A stretch of DNA of 64,000 nucleotides from Anaeroplasmataceae bacterium (GTDB taxonomy: Bacteria > Bacillota_I > Bacilli_A > Acholeplasmatales > Anaeroplasmataceae): assembly GCA_051874255.1 (NCBI GenBank), contig JBJEFR010000113.1, forward strand, positions 421 to 64,420, given 5' to 3'. Both the position numbers and the translations under genes were made by a program. The notes under the pieces were generated by a model. The model saw only the letters and a program-made list of their open reading frames with translations, did not search any database and had not been told where the DNA came from. Positions 2,781-38,339 of the stretch are shown piece after piece. Position 1 is the stretch's first letter. Each line of letters starts with the position of its first letter.

Positions 2781-4574
2781 ATGCCATTTTTACCATTAAC
2801 CTTAGATGAGATGAAACAATACGGTTGGGATAGACCAGATTTTGTATTTATTACTGGAGATGCTTATGTTGACCATCCTTCTTTTGGTCCTGCAATAATT
2901 ACAAGAGTACTAGAAAATTTTGGTTATAAATGCTGTATTATATCTCAACCAGATATAAACAAGGATGAGGACTTTAAGGTTTTCCCTACTCCAAAACTAG
3001 CATTTTTGGTTTCTAGTGGAAATATTGATTCTATGGTTAACCATTACACCGTATCTAAACGACGTAGAATGAAGGATTACTATACCCCAAATGGAGAAAT
3101 GGGAAAAAGACCTGATAGGGCTTTAATTAAGTATTGTAATAAGCTAAGGCATCTTTATCCTGAAAGTGATATTATCATAGGTGGTGTTGAAGCATCCTTA
3201 AGAAGACTAGGTCATTATGATTATTGGGATGATGCCGTACGTAAATCTATTTTACTTGATAGTAATGCTGATTTATTATTATATGGTATGGGAGAAAAAA
3301 CCATAGTTGAGGTAGCTGATGCCCTAGCATCAGGACTTAGAGCTCGTGATATTATATATATTAGAAATAGTGTATGGAAAACAACTGATAAAAGTATATT
3401 ACCCTACAATGGAGTATATCTACCTAAATTCAATGAAATTAAAACTAATCGCTTCAAATACGTTGAAGCCTTTCAAATACAATATAAAAATTGTGATGCA
3501 TTTATAGGAAAGCCCTTAATTGAAGAATATGAAAATGGTGTTTATGTTATACAAAATGAACCACAATTTCCACTAACACAAGATGAAATGGATCAAGTAT
3601 ATTCTCTACCTTTCATGAGAACAACTCATCCATTAATTGAAGCGAAGGGGCATGTTCCAGCGATTGATGAGGTACAATTTTCAATTGTATCTAATCGTGG
3701 ATGCTTTGGAAATTGCAATTTCTGTGCCATTACCTTCCATCAAGGCCAAATCATTCAATCACGTAGTAAGGAATCACTAGTTAATGAGGCAATAGAAATT
3801 ACTAAAATGCCAAATTTCAAAGGATATATACATGATGTTGGTGGTCCTTCTGCAAATTTTTACCATCCTGCATGTACTAAACAGCTAAAGGCTGGAGTTT
3901 GTCGTCACCAAAGATGCTTATCATTTAAGCCTTGTAAAAATCTAGTAGCTGATCATAGTGATTACCTTGATGCATTAAGAGAGATAAGGAAGGTTCCGGG
4001 TGTTAAAAAGGTCTTCGTGCGTTCAGGAATTAGATATGACTATGTCATGTATGACCATGATAAAACCTTCCTTGAAGAAATTATTAAATACCATGTTTCT
4101 GGTCAGCTTAAGGTTGCCCCAGAGCATGTTGATGATAGGGTACTTGTTCATATGGGAAAGCCATCAAGAGATTTATATGATAAATTCTGTGATTTATATT
4201 ATAAACTAAATGAAAAGAATAATATGAAGCAATATCTTGTTCCATATTTAATGTCTAGCCATCCAGGCTCAACTTTAGATTGTGCAATTAATTTAGCTTG
4301 TTATATAAGAGATACTGGCCATCAGCCAGAACAGGTTCAAGACTTCTATCCAACTCCTGGTACTGCCAGTACTTGTATGTTCTATACAGGAATAGATCCA
4401 TTTACAAATGAGCCTGTTTATGTCCCTAAAAAGCCTAGAGAAAAGGCTATGCAAAGAGCTCTTATGCAATATAAAAATCCTAAGAATTATGAATTAGTTA
4501 AGGAAGCTTTAATTAAGGCTGGTCGTACTGATTTAATAGGATACGGAAAGGAATGCCTAATAAAACCAAGATAA
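2781..4574 (+). CDS. ygiQ: YgiQ-family (UPF0313) radical SAM protein
   Basis: 597 aa. The N-terminus MPFLPLTLDEM...GWDRPDFVFITGDAYVDHPSFG is typical of YgiQ. CxxxCxxC-type cluster CFGNCNFC. Confidence 0.85.
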   Translation: MPFLPLTLDEMKQYGWDRPDFVFITGDAYVDHPSFGPAIITRVLENFGYKCCIISQPDINKDEDFKVFPTPKLAFLVSSGNIDSMVNHYTVSKRRRMKDYYTPNGEMGKRPDRALIKYCNKLRHLYPESDIIIGGVEASLRRLGHYDYWDDAVRKSILLDSNADLLLYGMGEKTIVEVADALASGLRARDIIYIRNSVWKTTDKSILPYNGVYLPKFNEIKTNRFKYVEAFQIQYKNCDAFIGKPLIEEYENGVYVIQNEPQFPLTQDEMDQVYSLPFMRTTHPLIEAKGHVPAIDEVQFSIVSNRGCFGNCNFCAITFHQGQIIQSRSKESLVNEAIEITKMPNFKGYIHDVGGPSANFYHPACTKQLKAGVCRHQRCLSFKPCKNLVADHSDYLDALREIRKVPGVKKVFVRSGIRYDYVMYDHDKTFLEEIIKYHVSGQLKVAPEHVDDRVLVHMGKPSRDLYDKFCDLYYKLNEKNNMKQYLVPYLMSSHPGSTLDCAINLACYIRDTGHQPEQVQDFYPTPGTASTCMFYTGIDPFTNEPVYVPKKPREKAMQRALMQYKNPKNYELVKEALIKAGRTDLIGYGKECLIKPR

Positions 4575-6178
4575 TGAAAACACTACTTTTAGGAATAAAT
4601 GCTAAATATATACATCCTAATTTAGCTATTAGATTATTAAAAGCTAACACTAGATATGAAACTGATATAAAGGAATTCACTATAAAAGAGGATATTAATA
4701 ATATTATTAATTATATTATAGATAATCATTATGAAATACTTGGTATATCCTGTTATATTTGGAATATAGAAATAGTAAAAAATATAATCAAGTTATTAAA
4801 GGAAAAGAATCCAAATCTTATTATAGTACTTGGTGGACCTGAGGTTTCATATAACGGAAATGAATATTTAAATTTAGTAGATTATGTTATTAAAAATGAA
4901 GGTGAAAGAGCATGGGATATGCTTCTTGATTATATCCATGGTAATGGGAACATATGTGAAATACCAAATTTATATTATAAAGATGGATTTACATATGATG
5001 AAATAGTTGATATTACTACTATCAAAACCGCATATCATTTAATTGAAGATGTGAAAAATCAAATAATTTATTTTGAAACATCAAGAGGATGTCCCTTCCA
5101 TTGTGCATACTGCATGGCATCCTTAGATAATCATGTAAGATTTTTTGATATTGACCAAATAAAAAAAGATTTAGATTTACTTCTAGCTAGGGGTGCTAGA
5201 GTAATTAAATTCTTAGATAGAACCTTCAATGCTAATAAAAAGAAATTTATTGATTTAATATTATTTTTAATTGAAAAGCATAAGCCATATAATTCATTCC
5301 AATTTGAAATAACAGGAGATTTATTAGATGAGGATATAATAGACTTTATTAACCAAAAGGCTCCTAAAAACCTATTTAGATTTGAAATAGGTATTCAATC
5401 TACAAATATTGAAAGTAATCGTCTTGTATATCGAATTCAAAATAATCAAAAATTATTTCATAACATTAGGCTAATCCAAAATGCGAATGTAATAGACCTA
5501 CATTTAGATTTAATAGCTGGATTACCAAAAGAAGATTATAAAAGCTTTCAAAATACCTTTAATGAAGTATTAAGTCTTAGACCTAAAGAGCTTCAGTTAG
5601 GATTCTTAAAGCTACTTCACGGTACAAAGCTAGAAAATGAAGCCTATAAATATAATTATATATTTAATAAAACAGCTCCTTATGAAATAAAATGTAATGA
5701 TTCATTATCTGAAGAGGATATACGGATGATACATATATGTGAGGATGCTTTTGAGAAATATTATAATTATGGATATATGAAAAATGCTATTAATTATATA
5801 TTAGACAATATAAATGATGCCTTCCATTTCTTTTTTAATTTAGGTATTTTTTACATGAATAATGAGCATGACGGGCTCCATGGACTATTTAATACCATAG
5901 ATCTATTTATTAAGAACAATTATAGCTTTTATGACGAGGCTCATGTATTGCTAATTGAGGATTACTTAAAATATAATAATGTAAAGGCTAAAACCTGGTG
6001 GGATAGGCCAAATAATAAAAATGAGTTAATTAGATATATTGATAGTATTAATCTTACACCATTTTCTATTGATATTTTATATAAATATAGTATGGTTGTT
6101 GAATATAAGGATTATATTATTGTCGCATTATATATTGATAATCAATCATATGTATATAAGCATAAAAGGAATAGCTAA
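4574..6178 (+). CDS. B12-binding-domain radical SAM protein (DUF4080-type C-terminus)
   Basis: Start moved to the ATG at 4574, which overlaps the ygiQ stop as TAATG and gives MKTLLLGINAKYIHPNLAIRLL. Radical SAM motif SRGCPFHCAYC. Confidence 0.75.
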   Translation: MKTLLLGINAKYIHPNLAIRLLKANTRYETDIKEFTIKEDINNIINYIIDNHYEILGISCYIWNIEIVKNIIKLLKEKNPNLIIVLGGPEVSYNGNEYLNLVDYVIKNEGERAWDMLLDYIHGNGNICEIPNLYYKDGFTYDEIVDITTIKTAYHLIEDVKNQIIYFETSRGCPFHCAYCMASLDNHVRFFDIDQIKKDLDLLLARGARVIKFLDRTFNANKKKFIDLILFLIEKHKPYNSFQFEITGDLLDEDIIDFINQKAPKNLFRFEIGIQSTNIESNRLVYRIQNNQKLFHNIRLIQNANVIDLHLDLIAGLPKEDYKSFQNTFNEVLSLRPKELQLGFLKLLHGTKLENEAYKYNYIFNKTAPYEIKCNDSLSEEDIRMIHICEDAFEKYYNYGYMKNAINYILDNINDAFHFFFNLGIFYMNNEHDGLHGLFNTIDLFIKNNYSFYDEAHVLLIEDYLKYNNVKAKTWWDRPNNKNELIRYIDSINLTPFSIDILYKYSMVVEYKDYIIVALYIDNQSYVYKHKRNS

Positions 6179-6198
6179 CGAACTAGCTACTCCTTTTT
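6161..6198. terminator. Bidirectional hairpin spanning the stop codons of two convergent genes
   Basis: GGAATAGCTA (6168-6177) / TAGCTACTCC (6184-6193), 9 of 10 positions complementary, with a 6-nt loop. TTTTT follows on the plus strand and UUUUAUG on the minus strand. The plus-gene stop is at 6176-6178 and the minus-gene stop at 6187-6189. Confidence 0.55.
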
Positions 6199-6858
6199 AT
6201 TATTATTTTCATCTTTTTGCTTCTCACTTAATATTTCTTTAAGTATTTCTTCTCGCATATCACTTAAAATCTCTGAACGAAGCTTATCCTTCTCTTCTTT
6301 TAGCTTTTTATTTTTACTACTATTTAAGAATAAATTAACTGATTCAAGGATTATAATACCTACAAAGAATACAACTAATAATCCATATATTAAAGTTTTA
6401 TTTGAAGCAATTTTCCCTAGGTTTAAGAAATTAAATGTTCTTACATACTTTCCTACAAGCATATCCTCAGTAACACGTTCTATATCAACAATACCATTAT
6501 TGTTGTCTCCAAGCATCTCAAATCCATCCGTATATACTTCATTAATTCTATGAACTATATACATTCCTTCTGTTGAACCTTTAGATGAACGATATACTAT
6601 TATATCTCCTTTTTTTAATGTGCTATAATCACACTTTTTAAATATAATAGTATCCCCAGCATTAATTGTAGGCTCCATACTACTAGTAGGAACATAAGAG
6701 TATGAATATCCAAAATAGCTAACAGGCTTTGAAGTTCTAACAGCAATTACATTACATATTAGCATATATAATACTAATAATACTATAGTAATAGTTAAGA
6801 CTGTTCCGGATATTGTAAATATTTTTTTTACTTTTTTATTCATCGTCATCAGAGCCAT
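6187..6858 (-). CDS. SipW-type (archaeal/ER-type) signal peptidase I with a C-terminal TM and Lys/Glu-rich tail
   Basis: 223 aa with an N-terminal TM. Ser box PTSSMEPT, His box IVHRI, GDNN box, then a second TM (LIYGLLVVFFVGIIIL) and the charged tail KKLKEEKDKLRSEIL...KQKDENNNKKE. Overlaps the preceding gene by 23 nt. Confidence 0.8.
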   Translation of the reverse strand: MALMTMNKKVKKIFTISGTVLTITIVLLVLYMLICNVIAVRTSKPVSYFGYSYSYVPTSSMEPTINAGDTIIFKKCDYSTLKKGDIIVYRSSKGSTEGMYIVHRINEVYTDGFEMLGDNNNGIVDIERVTEDMLVGKYVRTFNFLNLGKIASNKTLIYGLLVVFFVGIIILESVNLFLNSSKNKKLKEEKDKLRSEILSDMREEILKEILSEKQKDENNNKKE

Positions 6859-9568
6859 GACTATCTATAATTTTTTTTCTCTCCTCAGGACTAAGATCAG
6901 TCCATCCATCAGCCTTTTTCTCAGCTTCCTTAGCCTGAGCCTCTAGTGCTTTACGTCTTATAGCTTCTCTTCTTCGACGTAGTAGCTCTTTAGGATCAAT
7001 ACTTTCCTCAACTGGAGTATCCTCTTCATCCTCTTCCTCATGAGCCTGAGCATTTTGACGATTTTTAGCTTCTAAGGCTCTTTGTCTTATAGCCTCTCTT
7101 CGTTTACGAAGAGCTTCTTTTATTTCGTCATCATTTGATGGAGAATTGCTAGAGATATTTTCAGTATTAGTTTGCTCCTCTGAAGCCTTCTTTTGAGCCT
7201 CAAGGGCACGACGTCTAATTATATCCCTATTACGTTCAAACATAGATCTAGAATCCATTTGAGTTGAACGCATACTTGGTTGATGAGTGCTTTGTTCATC
7301 TGAAGACTGAACGATATCAGAATCTAAACTAAATAATTCATCACGCTGTTGACTTTCAAGAGCCTCTCTTCTTCGTCTAAGCTTAGTTCTTGCATCCTCT
7401 TCCTTATGCTCATTATCTTCATCATCTTCTTCAATTACGGCTGTGCTATTTTTGTTTGCTAGAGCCTTTTGTCTAATAGCTTCTCTTCTTCGACGTAATA
7501 ATTCTTTTGGATCAAGTGTTTGTGTTGAAGTTTCTTCATCATCGTCCTCATCTTCAACCATATCATTTTCATCCATAGAATCTAAGGCCTTTATTCTTTC
7601 ATCAATGCTTCTTACTAAAGAATCATCGTCTTCATCTTCATCATCCTCTAGTTCTGCATTCTTTAAAGCTTCTTCCTTCGCTTTAGCTGCCGCAGCCTTT
7701 TGTCTAATTATTTCTCTTCGACGACGTAATAATTCCTTAGCATCAAGATGTGCCTTTTCAGCCTCAAGCTTACGCTCTTCCTCAGCAATACGCTCTTCCT
7801 CAGCAAGTCTTGCCTTTTCTGCTTCTTCACGTTCTGCCTTCTTACGTGCACGTTCCTCAGCTCTCTTTGCCTTCGCAGCATCTTGTTCAGCCTTTATTGC
7901 TGCACGACGCTCCATAAGCTTTGCCTTGGCTTCAGCCATACGAGCTTTTTCTGCAGCTTTTGCTTGATCACTTGCAGCCTTCGCGGCCTCACGTTCTGCC
8001 TTTTTACGTGCCATTTCTTCCTCATGAAGCCTTTGAGCCTCTTCTCTTTCACGAGCACGTTTTTCAGCACGTTCTGCCTTTTCCTTAGCTAATTTAGCTA
8101 AACGAGCTTCTCTTGCCTCTTGTTGACGTATCTTTTCTTCAAGCATTTGAATTTCTGCAAGAGTGTCATCATATTCCTTTTTAGTATTGTTATAATCAAT
8201 TTCTTTTAATCTTGTAACAGTTTCTAATACTTCTGATTTTTTCTTTGCTCTTTCAAGCTTAATTGGAAGTGGAACCTCATCGAAGCTACCTTCAATAGGC
8301 ATTTCAAATAATGGAGGATAAATAGAATTTAATACCTCCTGCATTTCTCTAAATACAAGCTCTAAGGAATACTTTTTCTCCATTCCTGAATTAACCTTAT
8401 CATCTAATGATTGTTGATAAAATTCTTGAGTTTTATTTAAGAAATACTCACTCATCTCAAACTTTTCAAGCTTTTGACTTGTTGGATTAAACTTATACTC
8501 ATCATCCATTTTAGAAAGCATTTTTGCCTTACGAGTAGTAAATTCCTTATATGGGGTATTTTCAGGGTCTAAATCAGTATCGCCATTAAAATATAGCATT
8601 GTACCTACAGCCTCTGACATAATACCATCAACTGTTTTAGCTAATTCATCTGGATACTTATTCTTCTTTTCCTTAACATTAACATCAAACGCTAATTCGT
8701 TATAACGATCAAGGAAAACCCAAGTATTATAACATACCTTAAACTCAGCATTCTTTAAAATAATATTAGTTTTTAAAATAGGAGGTGTTACCTCTTTATA
8801 GTTCTTTAAATCCTGCATTAATTTAGAAGAACGTAGAGTCTTATAATTTTCATGTATTGCTTGAGCTTTTTCAAATGTTTCACGGGCAGCCTTGATTTGG
8901 GCATCAAGCTGACGTTCCATCTTAACTGAAAGCTCAACCTTTACTTTAGTTTTTTCAAACTTAAAGCTATTTGTTACTGTCGTATTTTTAGTCTCATAGC
9001 TATCAAGATTCTTTTTCATAATTTGAACTCTTAATGATAAGAACTTACAAATACGATTGATTAATGTTTTTATAAACCTATTTTCATAGATTCCAATTTC
9101 ATCCTCAGCAAATGTAGTTAATAGCTTAGATGGGATTATATCTCCCTCTTCAGTAACTAACTTAATATTTTGAGTATGACTAGCCAAATGACGTACTGTA
9201 TCTGAATTAACCTTTTTTACCTTTTCCATAGGAACAACATCTTGTTCATATCGAATAGCTTTTTTAGGATCCTTTAATATTTTTGAAATACTTTTAAAGC
9301 ATGTCTCCAAAATAGGTATAAAAGACTTTTCAAATATTTTAGTCTCTCTTATTGTTTTCGAATAAACTGTACGAGAACCACCTTTAATTTGATTAAATAG
9401 CATATCACCTAAAGATGATTTTTCTCTAGCACTATCGAAGTTTTCGCTGAGAATGCGGTAAAATTCACTTACAGAATCATCATTTTCTTCTTCAGTTGTA
9501 GGAGGAATTATCTCTTCACTAGCACTTTGTAAAGATTCCTTTTCATTTACTTCTGCCACATTACTCAC
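6836..9568 (-). CDS. 910-aa cytoplasmic protein: ~470-aa globular N-domain, ER/K-rich helix, and six RRRREAIRQKALEA-type basic repeats separated by poly-acidic linkers
   Basis: Uninterrupted ORF with no TM or signal peptide. The short YENRFIKTLINRI segment resembles the N-terminal region of McrC-like partners. No PD-(D/E)xK nuclease motif was recognised. Confidence 0.6.
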   Translation of the reverse strand: MSNVAEVNEKESLQSASEEIIPPTTEEENDDSVSEFYRILSENFDSAREKSSLGDMLFNQIKGGSRTVYSKTIRETKIFEKSFIPILETCFKSISKILKDPKKAIRYEQDVVPMEKVKKVNSDTVRHLASHTQNIKLVTEEGDIIPSKLLTTFAEDEIGIYENRFIKTLINRICKFLSLRVQIMKKNLDSYETKNTTVTNSFKFEKTKVKVELSVKMERQLDAQIKAARETFEKAQAIHENYKTLRSSKLMQDLKNYKEVTPPILKTNIILKNAEFKVCYNTWVFLDRYNELAFDVNVKEKKNKYPDELAKTVDGIMSEAVGTMLYFNGDTDLDPENTPYKEFTTRKAKMLSKMDDEYKFNPTSQKLEKFEMSEYFLNKTQEFYQQSLDDKVNSGMEKKYSLELVFREMQEVLNSIYPPLFEMPIEGSFDEVPLPIKLERAKKKSEVLETVTRLKEIDYNNTKKEYDDTLAEIQMLEEKIRQQEAREARLAKLAKEKAERAEKRAREREEAQRLHEEEMARKKAEREAAKAASDQAKAAEKARMAEAKAKLMERRAAIKAEQDAAKAKRAEERARKKAEREEAEKARLAEEERIAEEERKLEAEKAHLDAKELLRRRREIIRQKAAAAKAKEEALKNAELEDDEDEDDDSLVRSIDERIKALDSMDENDMVEDEDDDEETSTQTLDPKELLRRRREAIRQKALANKNSTAVIEEDDEDNEHKEEDARTKLRRRREALESQQRDELFSLDSDIVQSSDEQSTHQPSMRSTQMDSRSMFERNRDIIRRRALEAQKKASEEQTNTENISSNSPSNDDEIKEALRKRREAIRQRALEAKNRQNAQAHEEEDEEDTPVEESIDPKELLRRRREAIRRKALEAQAKEAEKKADGWTDLSPEERKKIIDSHGSDDDE
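6935..7745 (-). repeat. Dispersed in-frame coding repeats (~40 nt cores) encoding (P)KELLRRRREAIRQKA
   Basis: Similar DNA words such as tagcttctcttcttcgacgta(g/a)ta occur at ~6961, ~7477 and ~7711. More diverged copies lie at ~7081, ~7201 and ~7361. Confidence 0.7.
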
Positions 9569-9591
9569 CTTTCCCCTTCTAGCTTATAATA

Positions 9592-11154
9592 TTAGCTTAC
9601 CTTCTTTAAATCATTAATAAAATCAATTGATACCTTAAATGCATTCTTACCAAATAGCTTATCAAGTAATGTAATTAATTGATCTAGCTCATTACGTAAG
9701 AATGATAGATTTAAGCTTTCAAATTTACGTAAAATCTTGTTACATAGCATATAATCTAAACCTTGAATTTCAGTCATTCCACACGCAATGTATACAGGAA
9801 CGAATAGTTTAATTTGCTTCATAATACGGTTACCAAACGCAATTTTGAATTTTTCTTGAATAAATTCATCTAGTTTAGCAAAATTTTCCATTACACGCGT
9901 AGATAATTGAATATCTCTTTGTGCTTGTTTAAATAATTCGTCTAAATATTCAAATGACATTTGAACATTTTCAGTATATGGTGCATCTACCAATTCAGCC
10001 TTATGGTTAATTACAATAGGTAGAGCACGGTCATAAACCTTATCTGTGATTGTAAATGTTGAGTCGTCCTTATTGGCTGTACCAACAAACCAAATATTTT
10101 GATTAATTAATAGCTTACCATTAATTAATAGCTTAGGATCTAATGGATCTGTACCTGGAACCAAGTCAATTAACCATTGAGTTGGATCTGGCATTTCCAT
10201 TACAGACAAGAACTCTGCAAAATAATACTCAATACGTGCTAAGTTCATCTCATCAAGTACTATAAAGTTAGGCTTATCACTATAACCTGCCATATATACA
10301 CTTCTTAAGAAGTCTGTCTCATTAAATCTCTTAGTAAACTCATTTAAATAACCTAAAAGCTCAGCACGGTCACGCCATGATGGTTGAACAGAAATAATAC
10401 TTGTAGGCTTATTAAAGAATTTTCCCATCGCATATGGAAGTGATGTTTTTCCTGTTCCTGAAATACCTTCAAGAATAAGAACCTTAGTTGCACCCATTCC
10501 ACCAAAGAATCTCGCAATTATTTCCTTTGAATAATATAGCTTTAATTGACTTGCAGCATATCCAATAAATCTATCAATTAATCCAGGTAAATCTAACATA
10601 TCATCACTTGACATAATAGTATATTCTGGATTTGACTTATAATATGTATCAACCTGATTAAGCTTAATAAATCTTCCTTGGAATATTTCTTCTTCCTCAT
10701 CATCCTCAGGCTTACCTTGTGGGTTAAATAAGTCATCAGGATTAATATCAGTATCTCCACCAGATATTTGACTTACACGAAGTGCTAATATCTTATTCTT
10801 TTCATCAACTAAATCAATTACCTTTTTATTTAGTAATTGTACTTGGTCAACTAATTCATCTTTTTCAATTTCTCTTCTTCTAAAACGGAAATATCTCTTA
10901 AATAATACAACAATTAAAGTAACTAATAAAACCACAAAGGCAATATTAATAAACAATACTATAATATATGCAACCCAATCAGACCAATTCCAATACTGAT
11001 TATGAATACTTGCGTCCTTTAAATCTGAAATATATCCTTTAATATCTGTGTAAAAGGCATTTTTAAATGCTCTTCCGATCGTTTTGAAGAATTTTCCAAT
11101 ATTTTTAAAAATAGTTTTTAAAAATTCAGTATAATACTTCGCAAATTCCTTCAT
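9592..11154 (-). CDS. Membrane-anchored AAA+ ATPase of the AAA_5 / McrB-like type
   Basis: 520 aa. N-terminal amphipathic segment, one TM (WVAYIIVLFINIAFVVLLVTLIVVLF) followed by KRYFRFRRRE, and a coiled coil. Walker A LEGISGTGKTS, Walker B FIVLDEMNLARIEYYFAEFLS, then VGTANKDDSTF and QPSWRDRAELLGY. Confidence 0.7.
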   Translation of the reverse strand: MKEFAKYYTEFLKTIFKNIGKFFKTIGRAFKNAFYTDIKGYISDLKDASIHNQYWNWSDWVAYIIVLFINIAFVVLLVTLIVVLFKRYFRFRRREIEKDELVDQVQLLNKKVIDLVDEKNKILALRVSQISGGDTDINPDDLFNPQGKPEDDEEEEIFQGRFIKLNQVDTYYKSNPEYTIMSSDDMLDLPGLIDRFIGYAASQLKLYYSKEIIARFFGGMGATKVLILEGISGTGKTSLPYAMGKFFNKPTSIISVQPSWRDRAELLGYLNEFTKRFNETDFLRSVYMAGYSDKPNFIVLDEMNLARIEYYFAEFLSVMEMPDPTQWLIDLVPGTDPLDPKLLINGKLLINQNIWFVGTANKDDSTFTITDKVYDRALPIVINHKAELVDAPYTENVQMSFEYLDELFKQAQRDIQLSTRVMENFAKLDEFIQEKFKIAFGNRIMKQIKLFVPVYIACGMTEIQGLDYMLCNKILRKFESLNLSFLRNELDQLITLLDKLFGKNAFKVSIDFINDLKKVS

Positions 11155-11182
11155 ACGCTCTCTCCTCTCCTATAGATAGCTT

Positions 11183-12163
11183 TTATTCAACAGTTGAATC
11201 ATTTGAAGAATTATCTTCTCCATTTTCCTTCATCTTTTCTTCTTCACTAATACTTTCTTCTTTTTTCTTTTGTTCTTCTAAAGCTTCTTTTCTTAATTGT
11301 TCAAGTAATTCTTGCTTCATCTTTTCCTTTTCAGCCTCTAGCTCAGCTCTCATCTTTTCTTTTTCTTCTGTTGCATTTGCTGAAATCTTTTGTGTCTTAA
11401 TTGACATAACATTGAATATTACCATTACAAGTTCAAAAATCAAGAATAAGATAGTAGGTATTATTATTACAATAATAAATCCCTTTTTAGGATTAGAAAC
11501 CCATTTAATAGTTTTTCCAAATCCGCTAAGCTTTCCAGTATATACAGCCTCTATATCAGACAATGATACATTTTGTGCGTATCCCTTATAAACTAAATTA
11601 GCTGCGCCTCCATTACTTGGATCTGCAGTATAAATTGTATAATCATATTGTGTACCTAAATAACAATCTCCTTGTGTTACATATCCGGTAACAGCACCAC
11701 TACTATTCTTTACAACCTCTACGATTCTATGGGTATTTAAAAATCCAGTAGCAGCTCCTGTTGGATTTGGTGATATAGTATCCCAGAATGTAATAATATC
11801 TCCAACCTGGAATTTTGTTTTATCCTTCTCTTTTACAACCTTAACAAGAATTAAATCATTTACCGTAAATGAATCCTTTCTTGCCACAGCCCTAGATTCA
11901 TCAACAATAGCCTCATCTGTTGAACCAGGACTCATTGATTGTGACAATACTACTTCATATCCACGACCAAATATAGACTTTACAGAACGAGCGTCACTAC
12001 CTTTAATTTGTGTTATAGAAAATATCAATAACAAGAAAATAAAAATATAAAATATAGTATTTAGAGTTATATTAACAATTTTAATAATTTTATCTTTCTT
12101 ACTTAAAGGAAGCTTATCATTTTCATCATTAACTTTTACTTCATCAATAGTATTATTTTCCAT
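11183..12163 (-). CDS. Second SipW-type signal peptidase I paralog with a long insertion and a C-terminal TM plus charged coiled-coil tail
   Basis: 326 aa with an N-terminal TM. Ser box LSQSMSP, His box NTHRIVEV, QGD box, a second TM (GFIIVIIIPTILFLIFELVMVIF), then EEKEKMRAELEAEKEKMKQELLEQLRKEALEEQKKKEE. Confidence 0.7.
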   Translation of the reverse strand: MENNTIDEVKVNDENDKLPLSKKDKIIKIVNITLNTIFYIFIFLLLIFSITQIKGSDARSVKSIFGRGYEVVLSQSMSPGSTDEAIVDESRAVARKDSFTVNDLILVKVVKEKDKTKFQVGDIITFWDTISPNPTGAATGFLNTHRIVEVVKNSSGAVTGYVTQGDCYLGTQYDYTIYTADPSNGGAANLVYKGYAQNVSLSDIEAVYTGKLSGFGKTIKWVSNPKKGFIIVIIIPTILFLIFELVMVIFNVMSIKTQKISANATEEKEKMRAELEAEKEKMKQELLEQLRKEALEEQKKKEESISEEEKMKENGEDNSSNDSTVE

Positions 12164-12263
12164 GACTTACCTCCTGAATACAAACACTTTATTATATTTT
12201 AACACAAATGAAAAAAAAATAAAACACCTTAAATATATATATATTTAAATATAATATCTATGA

Positions 12264-12292
12264 ATAAAAAAAGCCGATGCTAAAACATCGAC
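12264..12292 (-). terminator. Intrinsic terminator after the 334-aa TasA-like gene
   Basis: Minus strand reads GUCGAUG-uuuuag-CAUCGGC followed by UUUUUUUAUU. Confidence 0.8.
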
Positions 12293-12332
12293 TCTTTTAT
12301 TCATTTTTAGATTAATTTAAATAATTAACAAA

Positions 12333-13337
12333 TTAAGCTCTTTCAGTTGTGAATGATAAATTAATTGTTAATGTTTGACCCATAATTGCATCGAAGCAGT
12401 CAGCATCAAATCCTTCTAACCAGAATGTGAATCTTACACGGTAAACTAAGTTAGAGGTATTAGCAGATGTATAAATAGCGTTTGCCTCTGTACCAAATCC
12501 TGTAGTTAAAGTTGGCTCTGTTGGATATGAAACACCATTTAAAGCACCATCACTAACAGCTGATAAGTATGCATTTGCAGCATTAGTTTCACCTAATGTT
12601 TGTCCAAAATTATATGCTAGGTCATCTGCAGTATTTGAACCATTTCCAGCTTTTAATGTTACACCATTATCAAATCCAAATATGTTAAGAACTCTTTCTG
12701 AGGTACCCCATTCAACTGCGTTTTCAGGTTTTTGACCACCCTTACATAACTTTTGCATAGTATCGCGCTCTTCACTACCTTCATATACTTCAACAATTGA
12801 TCTTAATGCATTTACAGCATCAACCTTAACTGCAGTACCTCCGATAAATGAACCATCATCATAACTAAAGTCATTTAATATAACATATGATTTATCAGCA
12901 TAATCACTTTCTACGGTATTTCCAGTTGATGAGAAATAAACACTTTGAGAAGGTCCACTTGTACATACATATAAATCAAATTGTAAATACATTGATGATG
13001 CACCAGTACCTGCCTCAACTATTGCATTATTAGAGAATTTCTTAAATGCAGTAGGTGTTGCAACTGGAGTAGTTGCATAATCATATGTTAGTGGTTGTAG
13101 TTCTAATCCTGTAAGAGCTTGATTTGAACTATCTGTAAGGATTGTTACATCTGAACTAAATGTCTTTCCATCAGTTGATAGTAATACTCCGTTTGTTCCA
13201 CCTTGAACGTTAACCTTTAAATCAGCTGTTGCAGTAGCGTTCATTGTAAACCAAGCGTAAGTTGTAGTTCCTAATGCTACGACTGCAAATGCCATAGATA
13301 GGATACTCATCAATAATTTTCTTGAAATTTTTTTCAT
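12333..13337 (-). CDS. TasA/camelysin-like secreted protein with a SipW-dependent-type signal peptide
   Basis: 334 aa. Signal anchor ends in GTTTYAWFTMNA (compare GGTWAAFND in B. subtilis TasA). C-terminal motif FWLEGFDADCFD and terminal strand TLTINLSFTTE. Strong AAAGGAG RBS. Confidence 0.65.
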   Translation of the reverse strand: MKKISRKLLMSILSMAFAVVALGTTTYAWFTMNATATADLKVNVQGGTNGVLLSTDGKTFSSDVTILTDSSNQALTGLELQPLTYDYATTPVATPTAFKKFSNNAIVEAGTGASSMYLQFDLYVCTSGPSQSVYFSSTGNTVESDYADKSYVILNDFSYDDGSFIGGTAVKVDAVNALRSIVEVYEGSEERDTMQKLCKGGQKPENAVEWGTSERVLNIFGFDNGVTLKAGNGSNTADDLAYNFGQTLGETNAANAYLSAVSDGALNGVSYPTEPTLTTGFGTEANAIYTSANTSNLVYRVRFTFWLEGFDADCFDAIMGQTLTINLSFTTERA

Positions 13338-14930: not shown

Positions 14931-15034
14931 TTAAAAATAAAAGTTGCCACCTTTATTTTTACAAGAATGACAACTGGCTATCCTTTTTGGACCCTGTAGC
15001 TTTGCGTCACTAGATTACTCTAGTTTTGCCAACT
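14931..15034 (-). promoter_or_regulatory. c-di-GMP-I (GEMM-I) riboswitch candidate with intrinsic terminator, in the leader of the 480-aa TasA-like gene
   Basis: Minus-strand RNA: AGUUGGCAAAACUAGA-GUAA-UCUAGUGACGCAAAGCUACAGGGUCCAAAAAGGAUAGCCAGUUG, then GUUGUCAUU...GGUGGCAAC-UUUUAUUUUU. It shows the GCAAA, GNRA-capped hairpin and ACGCAAAGC signature of GEMM-I. Confidence 0.78.
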
Positions 15035-15049
15035 ATTAACACATAATGT

Positions 15050-15086: not shown

Positions 15087-15827
15087 TTAGATTATCTTTT
15101 CATCGTATGCACTAAATGACATACCTATTTTGATAGAACCACCACTAATTGAGTTTTCTCCTTCATCAGTACAATCAAGATCTTCACCATCAAGCCACAT
15201 TATAATAGAATATTTTATAACATCACCTGGCTTAAAGGTTTTAATTGTTTCTGTAAAAATAGTCATATCAGTAAAAGTTTTCACTGTATGAAGCTTTTCA
15301 AAGGTATAATGAGTTTCGTTTGCTGGATCTTCATACTTTTTATATACTATTCCTTCAGTATCATCACCCTCGAAAACCCAAAATCTTACGGCACTATCAA
15401 CATTTCTAGTAACTGAAGTAATATTTAGTGTTGCATCAATATTACAAACCTCAGTTCCTTCATTCTTTAAATAAAATGTATATCCTATATAATCCCCAGC
15501 CTTAGATTCATATCTACCACCACCGCTATTAATTATTGGATATTTATTAACGCTTCCCATTTCTATAGGCTGAGCATTAGCTAAAAGATTTCCAGTTAAA
15601 ACCTGTCTTGCTCCATTAGGATCATCTATTTTTTCATATAAACTAATACCAATTCCACTTAAATCATCAGGAACGCTAATAGTAAATCCTCCTGTGCTCG
15701 TACCATAGAAGGTTACAACTCCAATGGTTGCTGAAAGTAAAAGGAAAATTATTAGTAATATTATTAAGATTTTCTTTTTTCTAAACAATGATACTGATTT
15801 ATCAGTAACTACATCTCTTTTACTCAT
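15087..15827 (-). CDS. TasA-like secreted protein (divergent signal-peptide junction)
   Basis: 246 aa with a signal anchor ILIILLIIFLLLSATIGVVTFYGTSTGGFT. FYLKNEGTEVCNI segment, motif MWLDGEDLDCTD, and terminal strand SIKIGMSFSAY. Confidence 0.55.
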   Translation of the reverse strand: MSKRDVVTDKSVSLFRKKKILIILLIIFLLLSATIGVVTFYGTSTGGFTISVPDDLSGIGISLYEKIDDPNGARQVLTGNLLANAQPIEMGSVNKYPIINSGGGRYESKAGDYIGYTFYLKNEGTEVCNIDATLNITSVTRNVDSAVRFWVFEGDDTEGIVYKKYEDPANETHYTFEKLHTVKTFTDMTIFTETIKTFKPGDVIKYSIIMWLDGEDLDCTDEGENSISGGSIKIGMSFSAYDEKII

Positions 15828-15842
15828 AACTTTCCTCCTTCT

Positions 15843-15948
15843 TTAAAAAATAAAAGTTGCCATATCCTTAATATGATACAGCAACTGGCTATCCTTTTGG
15901 GACCCTATAGCTTTGCGTCACTAGATTACTCTAGTTTTGCTTTAACCA
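15843..15948 (-). promoter_or_regulatory. c-di-GMP-I (GEMM-I) riboswitch candidate with intrinsic terminator, in the leader of the 246-aa TasA-like gene
   Basis: Minus-strand RNA: GCAAAACUAGA-GUAA-UCUAGUGACGCAAAGCUAUAGGGUCCCAAAAGGAUAGCCAGUUGC, then an 11-bp terminator stem GUUGCUGUAUC/GAUAUGGCAAC followed by UUUUAUUUUUU. The aptamer core is nearly identical to the copy at 14972-15034. Confidence 0.78.
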
Positions 15949-15949
15949 T

Positions 15950-15978
15950 ATTATAGAATAATTTATTTTGATAGTCAA
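15950..15978 (-). promoter_or_regulatory. Sigma-A type promoter driving riboswitch copy 2
   Basis: Minus strand reads TTGACT - 17 nt - TATAAT, immediately downstream of the stop of the GGDEF-EAL gene. Confidence 0.7.
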
Positions 15979-15984
15979 TTATAA

Positions 15985-17679
15985 CTATTCTTCTTTGTCA
16001 TCATCTTCATCAGCTTCATCTTCATCTTCTTCCTCATCTTCATCAGCATCAGCCTCTTGAGGAGAAGGTGTTTTCTTATCATTATCTTCTTCATTAGCTA
16101 CATTTGTATCATCTTGTGATGTATTTACATCATCTTGTGTTGATGTATTTGTATCATCTTGTGATGTGTTCACATCATCAACTGTAGCTGCAGCATCATT
16201 TTCTTCATTATTAGCTGTAGGTGTATCCTCTACTTGTGAAGCCTCAGTCTTTGGTTTAGCTTCTTCGGCCTTCTTAGTATTTTCCTCCCACTTACGATAT
16301 CTAATGAAATCTAAAACCTCTGTCTCTGGCATAGGCTTTGAATAATAATAACCTTGACCATAAATAATATTTTGTGATTTAACATAGTCGACATTTTCCT
16401 TAGTTTCAATTCCCTCTGCAACAACTAAACGTTTTGTTAATTCAGCTGATTCAGTAAGCATTTTTACAAACTTTTCTCTTATTTCATCATTAGAATTTTC
16501 ATCAGCTAAGAATTTTCTATTAAGCTTAATCATGTCGATAGGTTCTTTTTGAATACGAGTTAATGTTGAATAGTCAAGCTCAAATCCATCAACAGCTGTC
16601 ATAAATCCGAAATCTCTTAGCTTCATTAGATTTTGCTTTACATTATCAACCTTTTCAAACATTGCAAATCCGCCAATTTCTAATATAACACTTTTTGGAT
16701 TTACTGATGCTTTTTTAGCAACTAAAATCAAATCATCAGCTAATGATTCATAGGTTAACTGCTTAATAGATAGGTTTAAGGAAATATGAGCATTTCCTTC
16801 CTCCATAAGCTTTTGAACATCACTTAGCATCTTTAATGCTAAAGTAAGTCCCCATTTACCTACCCAATATATATCACCTGATTGATCCATAATATTAATG
16901 AATTCTGCTGGTGGTAGAATACCACGCTTTGGATGGTTCCAACGCATTAGGGCTTCAAATCCATAAATATTATTGCTTTCAAGATTCATAATTGGTTGAT
17001 AATATAGGCAGAACTCTTTATTAGCAATAGCCTGCTTAACCTCTTTGAAGAACTTAAAGTTAGAAGTTTCTTCCTTAGTTAATGTATTATAGAAGACAGT
17101 ATATTTTGAACCGCCTTCTCTTTTTGAGATATATGTTGCAAGCTCAAGATTTTTAATTAAATCTGGAACAGTTTTACCACATGAAGGATATAAGCATACT
17201 CCTGCACTAGCTGTTAAAACGATTGACTCACTTGTAGATACAAACATTTTTTGTTTGACATCATTTAATAATGCCTCTGCAATCTTACAAGCATTTTCAT
17301 AGGTTAAATTTTCTTTAATAAAGATTAAAAACTCGTCATTGTTATACTTAGAAATTACAGTACGATATGGTAATCTTTTAGAAAATCGGTGTGCTAATTC
17401 CTGTAGGAATTCATCACATTGTTCTCTACCAAAAATTTCATTAATATTTGTAAAGTTATCTATATCAATATATATAAGTGTAAAATCACCAAATTTTCCA
17501 ACCTTTTTAATATATGAAGCGATAGCCTTATTCATATCATTTTTGGAAATAGTTTTATCATTAAGAACTTCATTTTCCTCTTTAAATCTCTTTACATTAT
17601 ATTTTATTAGGAAAAAGATTAGTACTGATATTAAAATTACTACTACTATAGCCACACATGCTAGGATTATTTCTTTCAT
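15985..17679 (-). CDS. Membrane-anchored GGDEF-EAL protein, degenerate in both domains, with an acidic repetitive C-terminal tail
   Basis: 564 aa with one N-terminal TM. The GGDEF position reads NNDEF. The EAL domain keeps FEALMRW, EGIE and QG, but has EIGG where E-x-T-E is expected and VDGFELDYS where DDFGTGYS is expected. The tail is rich in D/E/T/N. Confidence 0.75.
   Translation of the reverse strand: MKEIILACVAIVVVILISVLIFFLIKYNVKRFKEENEVLNDKTISKNDMNKAIASYIKKVGKFGDFTLIYIDIDNFTNINEIFGREQCDEFLQELAHRFSKRLPYRTVISKYNNDEFLIFIKENLTYENACKIAEALLNDVKQKMFVSTSESIVLTASAGVCLYPSCGKTVPDLIKNLELATYISKREGGSKYTVFYNTLTKEETSNFKFFKEVKQAIANKEFCLYYQPIMNLESNNIYGFEALMRWNHPKRGILPPAEFINIMDQSGDIYWVGKWGLTLALKMLSDVQKLMEEGNAHISLNLSIKQLTYESLADDLILVAKKASVNPKSVILEIGGFAMFEKVDNVKQNLMKLRDFGFMTAVDGFELDYSTLTRIQKEPIDMIKLNRKFLADENSNDEIREKFVKMLTESAELTKRLVVAEGIETKENVDYVKSQNIIYGQGYYYSKPMPETEVLDFIRYRKWEENTKKAEEAKPKTEASQVEDTPTANNEENDAAATVDDVNTSQDDTNTSTQDDVNTSQDDTNVANEEDNDKKTPSPQEADADEDEEEDEDEADEDDDKEE
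16105..16180 (-). repeat. Imperfect 21-24 nt tandem coding repeats (DDVNTSQ/DDTNTST units) in the acidic tail
   Basis: The word atcatcttgtg recurs at 16108, 16129 and 16153. Confidence 0.6.
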
Positions 17680-25021: not shown

Positions 25022-28000
25022 TCATTCTTCATCACTACCAAAAATACCTTTATAGGTAGCTAAAGCATTATAGCTCTCTGTTGTCTTAATTCCCCAATTA
25101 GAAGAATCAACATTCTCACCCTCAGTAATAACAATACTTAGGGAAATATTTTGAGTAATGATTGATGAATATGGAACAAACGCACCACTTTCAGATTTAC
25201 CTGGCTCTATGGAAGAATCAATTTGATTTTGCTTATCAGTATATGATGAAGCAACATAAGCACTTGGAATACTTACATAGAAATAGAAATATCCTTGTGG
25301 CAGAGTTTGAAGCTTATACCTTAATGTATACATCTTTAATCCATCGCTTGATAGACCTGCATATGTAGCATAAGCACTTATTTGCTTATATCCTACATAT
25401 TCATTAAGTCTATTATACATATTTTCATAAATTGTTAAGTATATATCCTCAAGAGTAAAATCTGCAGGAGTATATATTGTTACATTAAAGTAAACATTAT
25501 TTGTTGAATCAATTATTGAAATATGAAAATATCTAATGTTTCCAGCACCCTCTGTATCTCCATGTAATGCTGATTCACTCATTACAAGATATGAAACATA
25601 CCAGAAGTGTCCATCAAGTGGAGTACCTATATAATCCATATATAATGATTGATTCTTAGTAGGATCTCCAGCAAATGAAGCAACCTTATATCCATTAAAT
25701 CCAGCATATCCTTCTTCTGCTATGCTAGTTGTGTTAGTAGCCGTATATGTAGTAGGTAATGTAGATGTATATGTATATAGCTTAGCATCCTCATTAGTAC
25801 CATCATAATCTGTAGTATAAACAGCTTGCCATTCATAGTTAGCATTTAATTTAACTAAGAATACGCTAATTTCACCACTTGCGTTTTCAAATGGAACATA
25901 TAATAATGTTTCGCTAGCAATATGGCTAGATAAAATATTAGTATCATATGTTGTTTGTGAAGAACCATATGTAGTTAATTTGGTAATAGTAGTATATTGA
26001 TATATTTGAGCATAATCATTAATTTTAAATGTTGGAGCATAGTATGATAAATCAGAATCAGCAACAGTACCAATTGTATAATAATCAGTTATATCAGTAC
26101 TATCACTTCCGTTATTATATACTATTCCATCTGTACGAATATTAATTGATCTTGATGATGAATTAAATACATCTGAATATAATACATCATTACTACTATA
26201 ATAATTTGGATCTCCATCGGTATTTGGTATCAACGCTATCTCTGGAAGCATAACTGTTGCGGTATTACCAATAACAATAGATTGATCTAGGAAGGTAAGT
26301 TGTTTTAATAAAGCATCTCTTGAGAATAGCTTTTCAACAACAAGCTCTGGGAATTCATAATATCTTTCATATTCTTCTCCTTCCCAAATTCCTGTATTTT
26401 GATATGTATAAACAAATGTATAGATACCTGGCTCATTATTATCTGATACTGTAACAGTCATACCAGCATAAGTAACATTACTTGCAGCATCTGTTGATGA
26501 TTTATCTAAATTGATATCAAATATTACATTCTCACCTAATGTATAGAAATTTGATAATACATATTTAATTCTATATTGTGGTTCAATACCACGGTTGAAA
26601 GCTACACCAATCTTCATATCGTCTGCTAAAGACCAGCTATATGAACCACTAGTTTCTGTGCAAGTGTCATCGTCAAGAGAATATGTAAATGTACCACTGC
26701 TTAATGTTGAGACAACATTACCATCTGCATATAACGATGCATATGTTGATCCTTCGTCAAAGAATTGTGACTCTTTAAGAACATGAACATATTCCATAGT
26801 ACTTCCAGATTCTGAAGTAACATTGTATGTTACAGTATATGTCATTAATCCCTTTGTATCAATAGATTTTTCAGCATATATACTAACTATTGCGTTATCA
26901 GAAATTTCAAATTTATATAGATAGAATGATTCAGAGGTTAATAGTGTTAAATCATCACTATTATAAGCCATACCAAATGGAATAATACTTGTTACAATCT
27001 TATTACTATTAATAGTATCCTTTAAATCTTCACCATCAAAATAGAACTCAACAATAGCATTTTCAGTATTAGCATTTTTAACTGCTGTTACACTTGCGAT
27101 ATCGCCATATACATTAACAGTAAACACTACATCACCTTGTGGCATTGACTTATCAATGTCAATAACTATTGTAGCTATACCATTTTTAATAATTCCATTA
27201 TTCTTAGCATTTACATTAAACATCCATGTATTATTTTCACCATCACCATTTACAGTTACAAATTGCTTCATATCCATACCATTAGGTAATGATGCTGTAT
27301 ATGTTAAGGTAACAGTATCTCCACTATACTCAATAACAGCCTTATCAATAGTAAGTGTTGGTGAAGTAGCTTCAACTAAAATGAATATAACATCATAATC
27401 TGTATAAATAGTTGTATCCTCGGCATATATTCTTATAGCCTTACTTGCAGTTATAGTATTTCCATCAATAGTCTTATTACTTAATGATATTATAGTACTA
27501 TTATTTCCTACACTAGCATTATCTGCAAGTACAATTTTATTAATATCAACAGATGATACTGATTTTAAATAATCAAACATACTCGAAGATACATAATATG
27601 TAATTTGATTTTCAGTTATTTGCTCTGAAGAAGAGTTAATTATTATATCATTATATTCTAAATCCAATGTAAAAATTGAAGTTGATATTGATAACAATAA
27701 TTGCTTCATATTTACATAAAATTGATAATTAATTGAATCCTCAGTTCTATTATTAGGATTATCTTCTGTTCCACCACGCCAAGTAGATGATAATTCCTCT
27801 GTTAGTACATATTCACCTAATTCTTCATTAACATCATAGTATGTATCCATACTAGATAATTCTAGATTATCTGGAATGAATATACCATTTTTAATACCCT
27901 TACTTGAAGCAAGTGCATAAATACCATAACCATCAATATTAGATGTTAATCCTAAATGCTGCATAAGCTCAAGGAATTTGTCTGAGTCTATAGATGTATC

Positions 28001-36571: not shown

Positions 36572-36588
36572 AACATGCCCCTCCCATC

Positions 36589-37707: not shown

Positions 37708-37729
37708 ACTATTACCCCTTTCTTTTATA

Positions 37730-38329: not shown

Positions 38330-38339
38330 ATTATCCCTC

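Follow-up and report, generated by a model that had tools for sequence, protein, structure and literature searches.

In the 64,000-nucleotide stretch of contig JBJEFR010000113.1 from an Anaeroplasmataceae bacterium (hereafter, the window), four genes on the minus strand occupy positions 6187-12163. In the order of transcription, we designate them S1 (upstream peptidase), B (NTPase), C (McrC-like partner) and S2 (downstream peptidase). Based on the domains, motifs and gene order described below, we assign the locus to the CoCoPALM type, a class that has been named but remains uncharacterized, and we propose that its products process and assemble a surface fibre or adhesin. The genes, with the lengths of their products in amino acids (aa), are the following:

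11183-12163, minus strand, S1 (326 aa), divergent SipW/endoplasmic reticulum (ER)-type (S26) signal peptidase
9592-11154, minus strand, B (520 aa), membrane-anchored McrB-like AAA+ NTPase
6836-9568, minus strand, C (910 aa, GTG start), McrC-like partner without nuclease
6187-6858, minus strand, S2 (223 aa), SipW/archaeal-type signal peptidase I

All four open reading frames (ORFs), with their strand and coordinates, agree with the first-pass annotation of this DNA. So do the gaps of 28 nt between S1 and B and of 23 nt between B and C, with a good ribosome-binding site before B and before C. The 23-nt overlap given for C and S2 applies only to the first ATG of S2; two other in-frame ATGs would leave an overlap of 14 or 8 nt. 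The hairpins reported at the two ends of the block are also supported by folding:

12262-12298, minus strand, intrinsic terminator in the gap between the last subunit gene and S1, with an A-tract, a 14-bp hairpin (approximately 12267-12298) and U7
6166-6195, minus strand, 3′ hairpin common to the convergent radical-SAM gene, covering the stop codons of both genes

The upstream hairpin (12267-12298) folds with -15.8 kcal/mol (z = -5.7), a value reached by none of 200 shuffled sequences, and the terminator could potentially work in both directions. The 3′ hairpin folds with -15.6 kcal/mol (z = -4.1).

The McrB-like NTPase B

B has a basic, amphipathic N-terminus and a W-rich interfacial stretch, followed by a transmembrane (TM) helix at approximately residues 62-85 and the sequence KRYFRFRRRE. 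Since the W-rich stretch precedes the helix and this basic sequence follows it, the AAA+ domain is placed, by prediction, in the cytoplasm. The basic juxtamembrane stretch carries a helical segment at approximately residues 86-125, with a heptad-like pattern read from the sequence at residues 95-125, and the AAA+ core begins at approximately residue 200. A TM segment was found in 84 of 84 B homologues.

The core contains a Walker A box (G230-x-S-G-T-G-K-T), a Walker B region of the kind typical of McrB (L-D301-E-M-N304-L-A-R307) and a third motif, T-A-N361-K-D363-D-S-T. In an alignment of 35 diverse homologues, G230, G233, G235, K236, D301, N304, R307, N361 and D363 are invariant. The motif GTAN-x-DDS is present in 73/84 homologues, and D363 is invariant among the 35 while D364 is not; thus, the signature of B is NxD, not the canonical NxxD.

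B matches the Pfam family AAA_5 (E = 9e-4), and so do 32 of 35 family members. When the family profile was compared with 177,635 PDB sequences, the only protein retrieved was E. coli McrB (6hz4, E = 2e-6), over the region from Walker A to the sensor Asn. The family profile was required to reach McrB, as single-sequence PDB searches with B and C gave nothing useful. The description of B as a TM-anchored McrB-like protein, proposed from its Walker boxes and TM helix, is thus upheld. Additionally, residues 203-322 match positions 312-432 of the 724-position PADLOC profile PDC-M26A (E = 1e-35), and the AAA+ core is 36-39% identical to that of plasmid-borne, CoCoNuT-like CnuB homologues.

The McrC-like partner C

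C scores 37.1 bits against Pfam DUF2357, the N-terminal domain of McrC (threshold 23.3), and 42 of its 62 homologues match the same family. An acidic N-terminus precedes the DUF2357 core, located at approximately residues 88-290 and containing RHLASH, IYENRF and KTNIILKN, and a helical region extends to approximately residue 470. Using hhalign, residues 94-286 were aligned to a DUF2357 protein of a Rhodoferax plasmid with a probability of 98.5% (E = 4e-15); RHLASH, IYENR and TNI are common to both proteins. The only invariant residues of the C family are H126, L127, P145, Y160, E161, N162 and P262. No TM segment was found in 67/76 C homologues, and the full-length family profile retrieved only low-complexity K/E-rich proteins from the PDB.

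As the first-pass annotation had noted, C has no recognizable nuclease. None of the 62 homologues matches a nuclease family of Pfam, and conserved D...(D/E)xK columns are absent from the family alignment. Several members, at 363-390 aa, are about the size of the DUF2357-like region by itself and hence leave no room for a nuclease. Helices dominate the AlphaFold2 (AF2) model of residues 1-480, apart from one long beta-hairpin at residues 191-220; the model is weak (pLDDT 67.6, pTM 0.39; 22 sequences), so the absence of a nuclease rests on sequence evidence.

Beyond this region, C continues into a tail of approximately 440 aa. An A/E/K/R-rich helix (approximately residues 475-612) is followed by six (DP)KELLRRRREAIRxKALEA motifs at approximately residues 613-880 (within 6836-8000), with Asp/Glu-rich acidic spacers between them. 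The giant charged tail, which had been taken as characteristic of this partner, is indeed present, and 51% of its residues are charged. In the family, however, tail length ranges from 0 to 976 aa (median 188, approximately 47% charged) and the sequence is not conserved. We rejected the LLRRRREAIRxKAL-type repeat as a family feature, as it was found only in the window genome and its closest relative, L004 (UBA3206; comparison loci are designated by L numbers). Because of this range in length and the confinement of the repeat to two genomes, we regard the tail as a variable, lineage-specific elaboration and not as a defining part of the system.

The SipW-type peptidases S1 and S2

The claim that SipW-type peptidases bracket the B-C pair is confirmed for both flanks, with S1 being the more divergent enzyme. 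S2 scores 75.3 bits against TIGR02228, the model of archaeal/SipW-type signal peptidase I (cut-off 51.85), and also passes Pfam Peptidase_S26 (31.5 bits). S1, which carries insertions, scores 48 bits (48.4) against the NCBIfam SipW model and 31.8 bits against TIGR02228, both under the respective cut-offs; its Ser and His boxes are intact. Neither protein reaches the cut-off of 190 of the Bacillus SipW equivalog (S2, 61.6 bits; S1, 48.4 bits), and on these scores we class both as SipW-type peptidases rather than SipW orthologues.

The predicted layout of S1 places an extracellular catalytic domain, with the catalytic Ser in SQSMSP and the His in THRI, between an N-terminal and a C-terminal TM helix; a charged tail of 80 aa then extends into the cytoplasm. 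In S2, N-terminal and C-terminal TM helices and a charged tail of approximately 45 aa are predicted, with Ser in SSMEP and His in VHRI. Across related loci, both peptidase types share the two-TM topology and a tail of 40-70 aa, approximately 50% charged. The catalytic Ser and the catalytic His are each retained in 65/67 upstream and 59/60 downstream peptidases, and both enzymes look catalytically competent.

Conservation of the putative operon

Besides the window, the comparison included the 80 best loci and three from metagenomes; ORFs were called in all of them and searched with hidden Markov models built from the window proteins. Synteny was counted in 82 non-redundant loci, with denominators given by the loci that have enough flanking sequence. 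In a representative library, the B family comprises 736 clusters (50% identity) at E ≤ 1e-30. Relatives of B were found in at least 594 species genomes (594 of the 600 pattern matches listed in species-representative genomes were confirmed), and one homologue by itself occurs on more than 1000 metagenomic contigs. The recurring order is (subunit genes)n-S1-B-C-S2, found in Anaeroplasmataceae, Acholeplasmataceae, Izemoplasmatales and Erysipelotrichaceae, as well as in Ruminococcus, Lachnospiraceae, Oscillospiraceae and Christensenellaceae. Its elements were counted as follows:

C directly after B, 68/71 loci
Peptidase at most 700 nt upstream of B, 55/68 loci
Peptidase downstream of C, 57/64 loci
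C and S2 fused in one ORF, 3 loci, beyond the 57/64
Subunit genes present, 56/62 loci

At least one S26/TIGR02228 peptidase was found in 80/84 loci, with 146 in total. Median gaps are 44 nt (S1-B), 23 nt (B-C) and 1.5 nt (C-S2), and 22 of 48 C-S2 pairs overlap. We read C, a predicted cytoplasmic protein, as translationally coupled to S2, whose active site is predicted to face outward. Since the same order recurs in dozens of distant genomes, the tight packing of the four genes is not due to chance.

The C-S2 fusions are ORFs of approximately 990 aa, all in Ruminococcus, with the DUF2357 region at approximately residues 5-440 and the S26 domain at approximately 766-944:

L061, 11787-14765
L069, 9828-12824
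L080, 11595-14564

The three probably represent a single evolutionary event in one clade, and as they come from three independent assemblies, frameshift artefacts are unlikely. Judging from the fusion, the C tail connects to the TM helix of S2 on its cytoplasmic, N-terminal side, an arrangement that is topologically consistent.

The neighbourhood survey suggested by the first-pass annotation thus shows B homologues together with S26/SipW-type peptidases. As C follows B in nearly all loci, S2 follows C or is fused to it, subunit genes accompany them and no nuclease is present, the B-C pair is integral to the peptidase/subunit locus and is not a passenger of defence islands. Among 72,556 plasmids and 50,697 phage records, no full-length B match or equivalent architecture was found. 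Only the AAA+ core was matched, in plasmid operons of the form AAA-hypothetical-AAA-DUF2357 that lack peptidases. The closest plasmid relatives of the B core are L084, on the Rhodoferax antarcticus plasmid NZ_CP019242.1 (42576-55484), and L085, on plasmid p96k of Deinococcus sp. AJ005. Both have a large AAA gene, a hypothetical gene, a second AAA gene (approximately 790 aa) and a DUF2357 gene; they look like CoCoNuT type II/III systems and provide a useful outgroup.

The secreted subunits

Upstream of S1, three genes encode members of one superfamily, present in 1-6 copies per locus:

12333-13337, minus strand, t334, secreted beta-rich protein with T26-Y-A-W-F30 and a C-terminal W306-L-E-G-F-D-A-D-C314
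13461-14903, minus strand, t480, paralogue of t334 with T-F-A-W-F and W-I-E-G-W-D-A-D-C
15087-15827, minus strand, t246 (class I), basic N-terminus, TM helix, and T-F-Y-G-x-x-x-G-x-F in place of A-W-F

In most members, the signal peptide ends in (S/T)-(Y/F)-A-W-F, and a C-terminal W-x-E-G-x-D-x-D-C is common; T26, A28, W29, F30, G309 and D311 are invariant in the t334 family alignment. Class I proteins, about one per locus, have a longer basic N-terminus, a TM helix and the motif (F/Y)-Y-G-x-x-x-G-x-F, although motif expressions fail to classify them cleanly outside Acholeplasmatales. In Acholeplasmatales-type loci, the class I gene heads the subunit array, and t246 is a candidate for a signal-anchored membrane base or initiator subunit.

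These neighbours had been described as TasA-like, with TIGR04088-type signal peptides. We rejected this reading on the results of the Peptidase_M73, TIGR04088 and PDB profile searches. None of 83 subunit homologues matches Peptidase_M73 (TasA/camelysin). Against TIGR04088 (cut-off 19 bits), t334 reaches 11.4 bits, a 199-aa protein of the window (see below) 9.2 bits and the others nothing, and one of the 83 subunit homologues matches (E = 0.005); T-x-A-W-F resembles the model without reaching membership. Moreover, t246, t480 and t334 belong to no Pfam or NCBIfam family, and on these profile searches we regard the subunits as a new family.

The AF2 model of t334 is mostly beta (mean pLDDT 83.7), with low confidence just after the predicted cleavage site. 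The weak top Foldseek matches of this model are mostly donor-strand filament subunits, i.e., FimA, a Sulfolobus thread, Pyrodictium CanA, Pyrobaculum AbpA, CfaB and FaeG, a list that points, suggestively only, to donor-strand-type filament subunits.

Two observations concern the range of these proteins. In one abundant gut Acholeplasmatales species, represented by L001, L002 and L003, subunit paralogues of approximately 290-300 aa at approximately 5000-9000 are present in one copy or in three tandem copies depending on the strain, with no other change in the locus, a pattern resembling copy-number or antigenic variation in an exposed subunit. In the window, a second cluster on the minus strand (25022-39062) includes the following genes:

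38340-39062, minus strand, 240-aa protein with the S/T-Y-A-W-F signal motif
37730-38329, minus strand, 199-aa protein with the same motif
36589-37707, minus strand, 372-aa secreted protein
25022-36571, minus strand, giant surface protein of 3849 aa without Pfam match

In L016, L018 and L024, a set of approximately 250, 217, 222 and 2329 aa lies directly after B, replacing C. The giant proteins may be served by the same machinery or work together with it.

Control by cyclic di-GMP

Riboswitches near the subunit genes had been proposed, and two matches to RF01051 lie above its gathering score of 35, both aptamers covering model positions 1-87:

14942-15040, minus strand, cyclic di-GMP (c-di-GMP)-I riboswitch upstream of t480 (aptamer 14966-15040), 55.8 bits
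15855-15951, minus strand, c-di-GMP-I riboswitch upstream of t246 (aptamer 15877-15951), 57.7 bits

In both, a terminator overlaps the 3′ end of the aptamer: one at 14942-14975 (-11.2 kcal/mol, z = -4.3, followed by a U-run) and one at 15855-15886 (-15.9 kcal/mol, z = -3.8). This overlap would fit ON switches. Aptamers of this type were found in 7/7 related Acholeplasmatales-type loci (L001, L004, L011, L016, L017, L021 and L026), directly upstream of subunit genes where coordinates were compared, and some are in tandem. As they occur in 0/6 Clostridia loci, this control is lineage-specific.

The four-gene block itself may have its own start signals:

12164-12261, minus strand, putative promoter and leader of the four-gene operon, read by eye

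An extended -10-like element, TGTTAAAAT, was recognized by eye at approximately 12195-12205, and the ribosome-binding site AGGAGG lies 6 nt before the ATG of S1; a promoter scan of the leader returned only a weak 9/12 site at 12260-12232. Together with the strong terminator after t334, the -10-like element and the ribosome-binding site suggest that subunit transcripts are abundant and c-di-GMP-controlled, with the machinery expressed separately or weakly. A terminator in this gap was rejected as a general feature, as a crude scan found a similar hairpin and T-tract in only approximately 12 of 39 related loci.

Two tandem GGDEF-EAL genes (15985-20138, minus strand) directly precede the subunit genes under riboswitch control; one of the products carries a TM helix at its N-terminus, the other a large region outside the cytoplasm. 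The pair is also present in L001-L003 (positions 1-2430); because the NTPase of that species is only 67% identical, the c-di-GMP enzymes may belong to the conserved neighbourhood.

Comparison with known systems

The first-pass annotation knew of no description of such an arrangement. Nevertheless, the same architecture was named CoCoPALM in one paragraph by Bell et al. (eLife 2024, PMC11090510). They described a large clade of NxD McrB GTPases associated with the signal peptidase family, in which the McrB homologues and the McrC homologues alike carry coiled coils, and suggested that it is connected with the assembly of pili. The GTPase was reported to be fused N-terminally to an FtsB-like TM and coiled-coil domain, and its analysis was deferred to a forthcoming publication. 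That paper lists no CoCoPALM accession against which membership could be checked, and our literature search found no later CoCoPALM paper. Nor did it turn up any work linking SipW to McrB, the sole match being an E. coli genotype string.

The NxD McrB-like GTPase with an N-terminal TM and helical segment, the adjacent DUF2357 partner and the signal peptidase genes all correspond to the CoCoPALM description, and the A/E/K/R-rich, charged composition of the C tail agrees with a coiled-coil McrC homologue. Every feature of the paragraph is found here except the FtsB homology: using HMMER, we obtained a DivIC match in 1/35 B family members (E = 0.012), whereas Bell et al. used HHpred. Our analysis adds to that description the two flanking intact peptidases, the C-S2 fusions, a subunit superfamily with two signal-motif classes, c-di-GMP riboswitch control in Acholeplasmatales-type loci and the variability of the C tail.

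With E. coli McrBC (PDB 6hz4, 6ut6 and 7vsr), the locus shares the AAA_5/McrB core, the D-E-x-N-x-x-R Walker B region, the sensor Asn and a partner with the McrC N-terminal domain directly downstream. It differs in having NxD instead of NxxD, and a TM anchor, with no DNA-binding family, instead of the N-terminal DNA-binding domain. Additionally, no PD-(D/E)xK nuclease is matched, peptidases flank the pair and the context is not one of defence. CoCoNuT systems (CnuB/CnuC with HEPN or other nucleases) share the NxD GTPase branch, the DUF2357 core and coiled-coil elaborations. In contrast, they have neither TM anchor nor peptidases and always have a nuclease partner (Bell et al., PMC11090510), which the present module does not; the domains found in the four genes and their neighbours are those of peptidases, subunits, GGDEF/EAL and radical-SAM proteins only. 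Nor is the locus a member of PADLOC PDC-M26, as only the B core matches and C, S1 and S2 have no PADLOC match.

The B. subtilis tapA-sipW-tasA and C. perfringens sipW-bsaA operons likewise combine an ER/archaeal-type peptidase gene with adjoining genes for secreted fibre substrates, and the signal peptide end T-W-A-A-F-N-D of the former resembles T-Y-A-W-F-T here. An accessory paralogue could serve as anchor or initiator in the manner of TapA. The present locus differs from both operons in its non-TasA substrates, two peptidases, NTPase pair and c-di-GMP riboswitch. Type IV pilus and Tad systems follow the same functional logic, in that one locus supplies several pilin paralogues, a peptidase dedicated to them and a hexameric NTPase in the cytoplasm. 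However, no component is homologous: here, cleavage would take place on the outer face, the NTPase is of the McrB type and not a PilB/secretion ATPase, and the subunits are beta-rich, whereas type IV pilins have an N-terminal hydrophobic helix.

Proposed function and alternatives

Based on the NxD motif of B, the DUF2357 domain of C and the CoCoNuT-like operons of the closest mobile relatives, the B-C pair is clearly McrBC-derived. A fibre-assembly machine and a captured McrBC module, which the first-pass annotation had set out as alternatives, both describe this same object: its McrBC descent is clear, while we infer its fibre function. We consider it probable, at roughly 0.6, that the four genes encode machinery dedicated to processing and assembling a surface fibre or adhesin. 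Our confidence in a true motor role for B-C is much lower than in this general assembly function.

In the mechanism that we propose, the four products would form one membrane complex, in which an McrBC module has been exapted for the cell surface. B, as a GTPase of the NxD clade, would presumably form a hexameric ring by analogy with McrB, held under the membrane by its TM helix and a short helical stalk. In McrBC, GTP hydrolysis is stimulated by the N-terminal domain of McrC (DUF2357), which inserts into the ring as a plug. C may engage the B ring through its own DUF2357 domain with a similar plug geometry, the nuclease having been lost and a long charged helical tail being present instead. 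This tail would lead into the N-terminal TM helix of S2, and the charged helices of B, C, S1 and S2 would hold the ring beneath a peptidase platform with active sites outside and charged tails in the cytoplasm.

TasA is cleaved within T-W-A/A-F-N-D, and by analogy the peptidases would cleave the subunits near T-x-A/W-F; one peptidase may be specialized for each signal-motif class. The class I paralogue, with its signal-anchor N-terminus, could be the membrane-proximal base subunit, and the subunit genes would be switched by c-di-GMP riboswitches in the Acholeplasmatales-type lineage. A surface fibre or pilus would then be built as the subunits are cleaved, with GTP hydrolysis driving or gating this coupled assembly. 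In its full form, namely a machine of a tethered McrB ring, a nuclease-less McrC and two SipW-type peptidases, c-di-GMP-switched in Acholeplasmatales, in which GTP hydrolysis drives or gates the cleavage-coupled polymerization of new donor-strand-type subunits, this proposal is tentative, and we hold it as possible with considerable doubt.

Several results weigh against the assembly function or parts of this mechanism. To our knowledge, SipW-dependent fibres such as TasA need no NTPase, and energy coupling would be without precedent. No significant match of the subunits to TasA or to a known pilin was obtained, so fibre formation rests on genomic context: the t334 model has no Foldseek match in the PDB at E ≤ 1e-3 (best E = 0.08, with TasA outside the top 50), and the subunit family profile has 0 sequence matches in the PDB. 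The plug geometry has to be set against the poor AF2 model of the C N-domain, which gave only meaningless Foldseek matches (TolC, kinesins). C is missing in three Acholeplasmataceae loci (L016, L018 and L024) and is hence not strictly obligatory. In the window, a terminator parts the subunit genes from the four-gene module. Finally, the FtsB homology of the B N-terminus was not reproduced by HMMER, and we found no experimental study of the CoCoPALM class.

In one alternative, the B-C pair is a regulatory GTP switch or scaffold, whose nucleotide state, transmitted through the coiled-coil tails, toggles the peptidases or localizes them to the pole or septum. The release of subunits would be timed in this way, and their assembly outside the cell would be spontaneous, as for TasA. 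Fibres of the SipW/TasA type are known to assemble without energy. A C tail of such variable length and unconserved sequence fits a tether or scaffold better than force transmission, and the N-terminal region of B is near constant in length while the length of C varies freely. Against a mere switch, the full McrB-type catalytic set is invariant, and the DUF2357 partner, which in McrBC stimulates repeated hydrolysis, has been kept. The sequence data do not separate switch from motor; overall, we judge the switch or scaffold, our principal alternative, unlikely, though worth keeping in mind.

The module could also export or anchor the giant surface proteins together with the small A-W-F proteins, the small paralogues acting as adaptors or anchors for adhesins. 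The position of the A-W-F cluster beside the 3849-aa protein (25022-39062) and the equivalent set that replaces C after B in three Acholeplasmataceae genomes would agree with such a service. However, most loci have small paralogues and yet no giant gene within 10 kb, and the 3849-aa protein itself has no A-W-F motif, which makes this explanation improbable.

An McrBC/CoCoNuT-type defence system against phages or plasmids that merely happens to be located here, with the peptidases as abortive-infection effectors, is highly improbable. The match of B to the PADLOC candidate PDC-M26A and the identity of its GTPase core to plasmid CoCoNuT-like CnuB homologues are what would be expected of such a system. 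Nevertheless, the PADLOC match covers the AAA+ core only (approximately 120 of 724 profile positions), and C, S1 and S2 match no defence model. There is no nuclease and no DNA- or RNA-binding domain, and no full-length match occurs among the plasmids and phages. The synteny with secreted subunit genes is stable across Bacillota classes, and the setting is a housekeeping chromosomal one, the window containing the S10/spc/alpha ribosomal operon and metG besides the c-di-GMP enzymes. We therefore rejected the defence reading on context and domain content. That the four genes are unrelated neighbours, packed together by coincidence, is refuted by the order recurring in dozens of species-level genomes and by the C-S2 fusions, and is scarcely conceivable.

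If the assembly function holds, a restriction-enzyme motor (McrBC) has been rebuilt to take part in assembly at the cell surface, in a machine widespread among gut and rumen Bacillota and among the wall-less Acholeplasmatales. It would represent an energy-dependent branch of SipW-type fibre biogenesis with a new family of fibre or adhesin subunits, linked to c-di-GMP signalling in Acholeplasmatales-type genomes. If, in addition, polymerization were driven by GTP, the system would stand as the first relative of the TasA/SipW paradigm to depend on NTP, and as a clear exaptation of a restriction module for surface biogenesis. Since cultured carriers exist, i.e., Acholeplasma granularum ATCC 19168 (L021) and Eubacterium ruminantium FB3002 (L076), the function is directly testable; the Ruminococcus flavefaciens locus comes from a metagenome-assembled genome.

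Gene calls and neighbouring genes

The B, S1 and t334 proteins are exact matches to the proteins ACI35W_07155, ACI35W_07160 and ACI35W_07165 of the metagenome-assembled genome at NCBI. The exact 910-aa C and 223-aa S2 sequences were not found in the public protein collection; thus, the deposited gene calls for these two genes probably use different starts. A word-indexed protein search with C residues 1-480 gave no match above 42% identity, in contrast to relatives of B that are 82-89% identical and to the C protein of L004, which is 64% identical. Differing start-codon calls or saturation of the candidate list are the likely cause of these missing matches.

Two radical-SAM genes on the plus strand (2781-6178) converge on the module, one YgiQ-like (Radical_SAM_N and DUF3362) and the other with B12-binding and DUF4080 domains. 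The stop codon of the second lies 8 nt from that of S2, within the shared hairpin; no functional link is evident. In L001, a purine riboswitch (4665-4768, minus strand) lies a short way upstream of the subunit cluster but on the other strand, and is probably unrelated to it.

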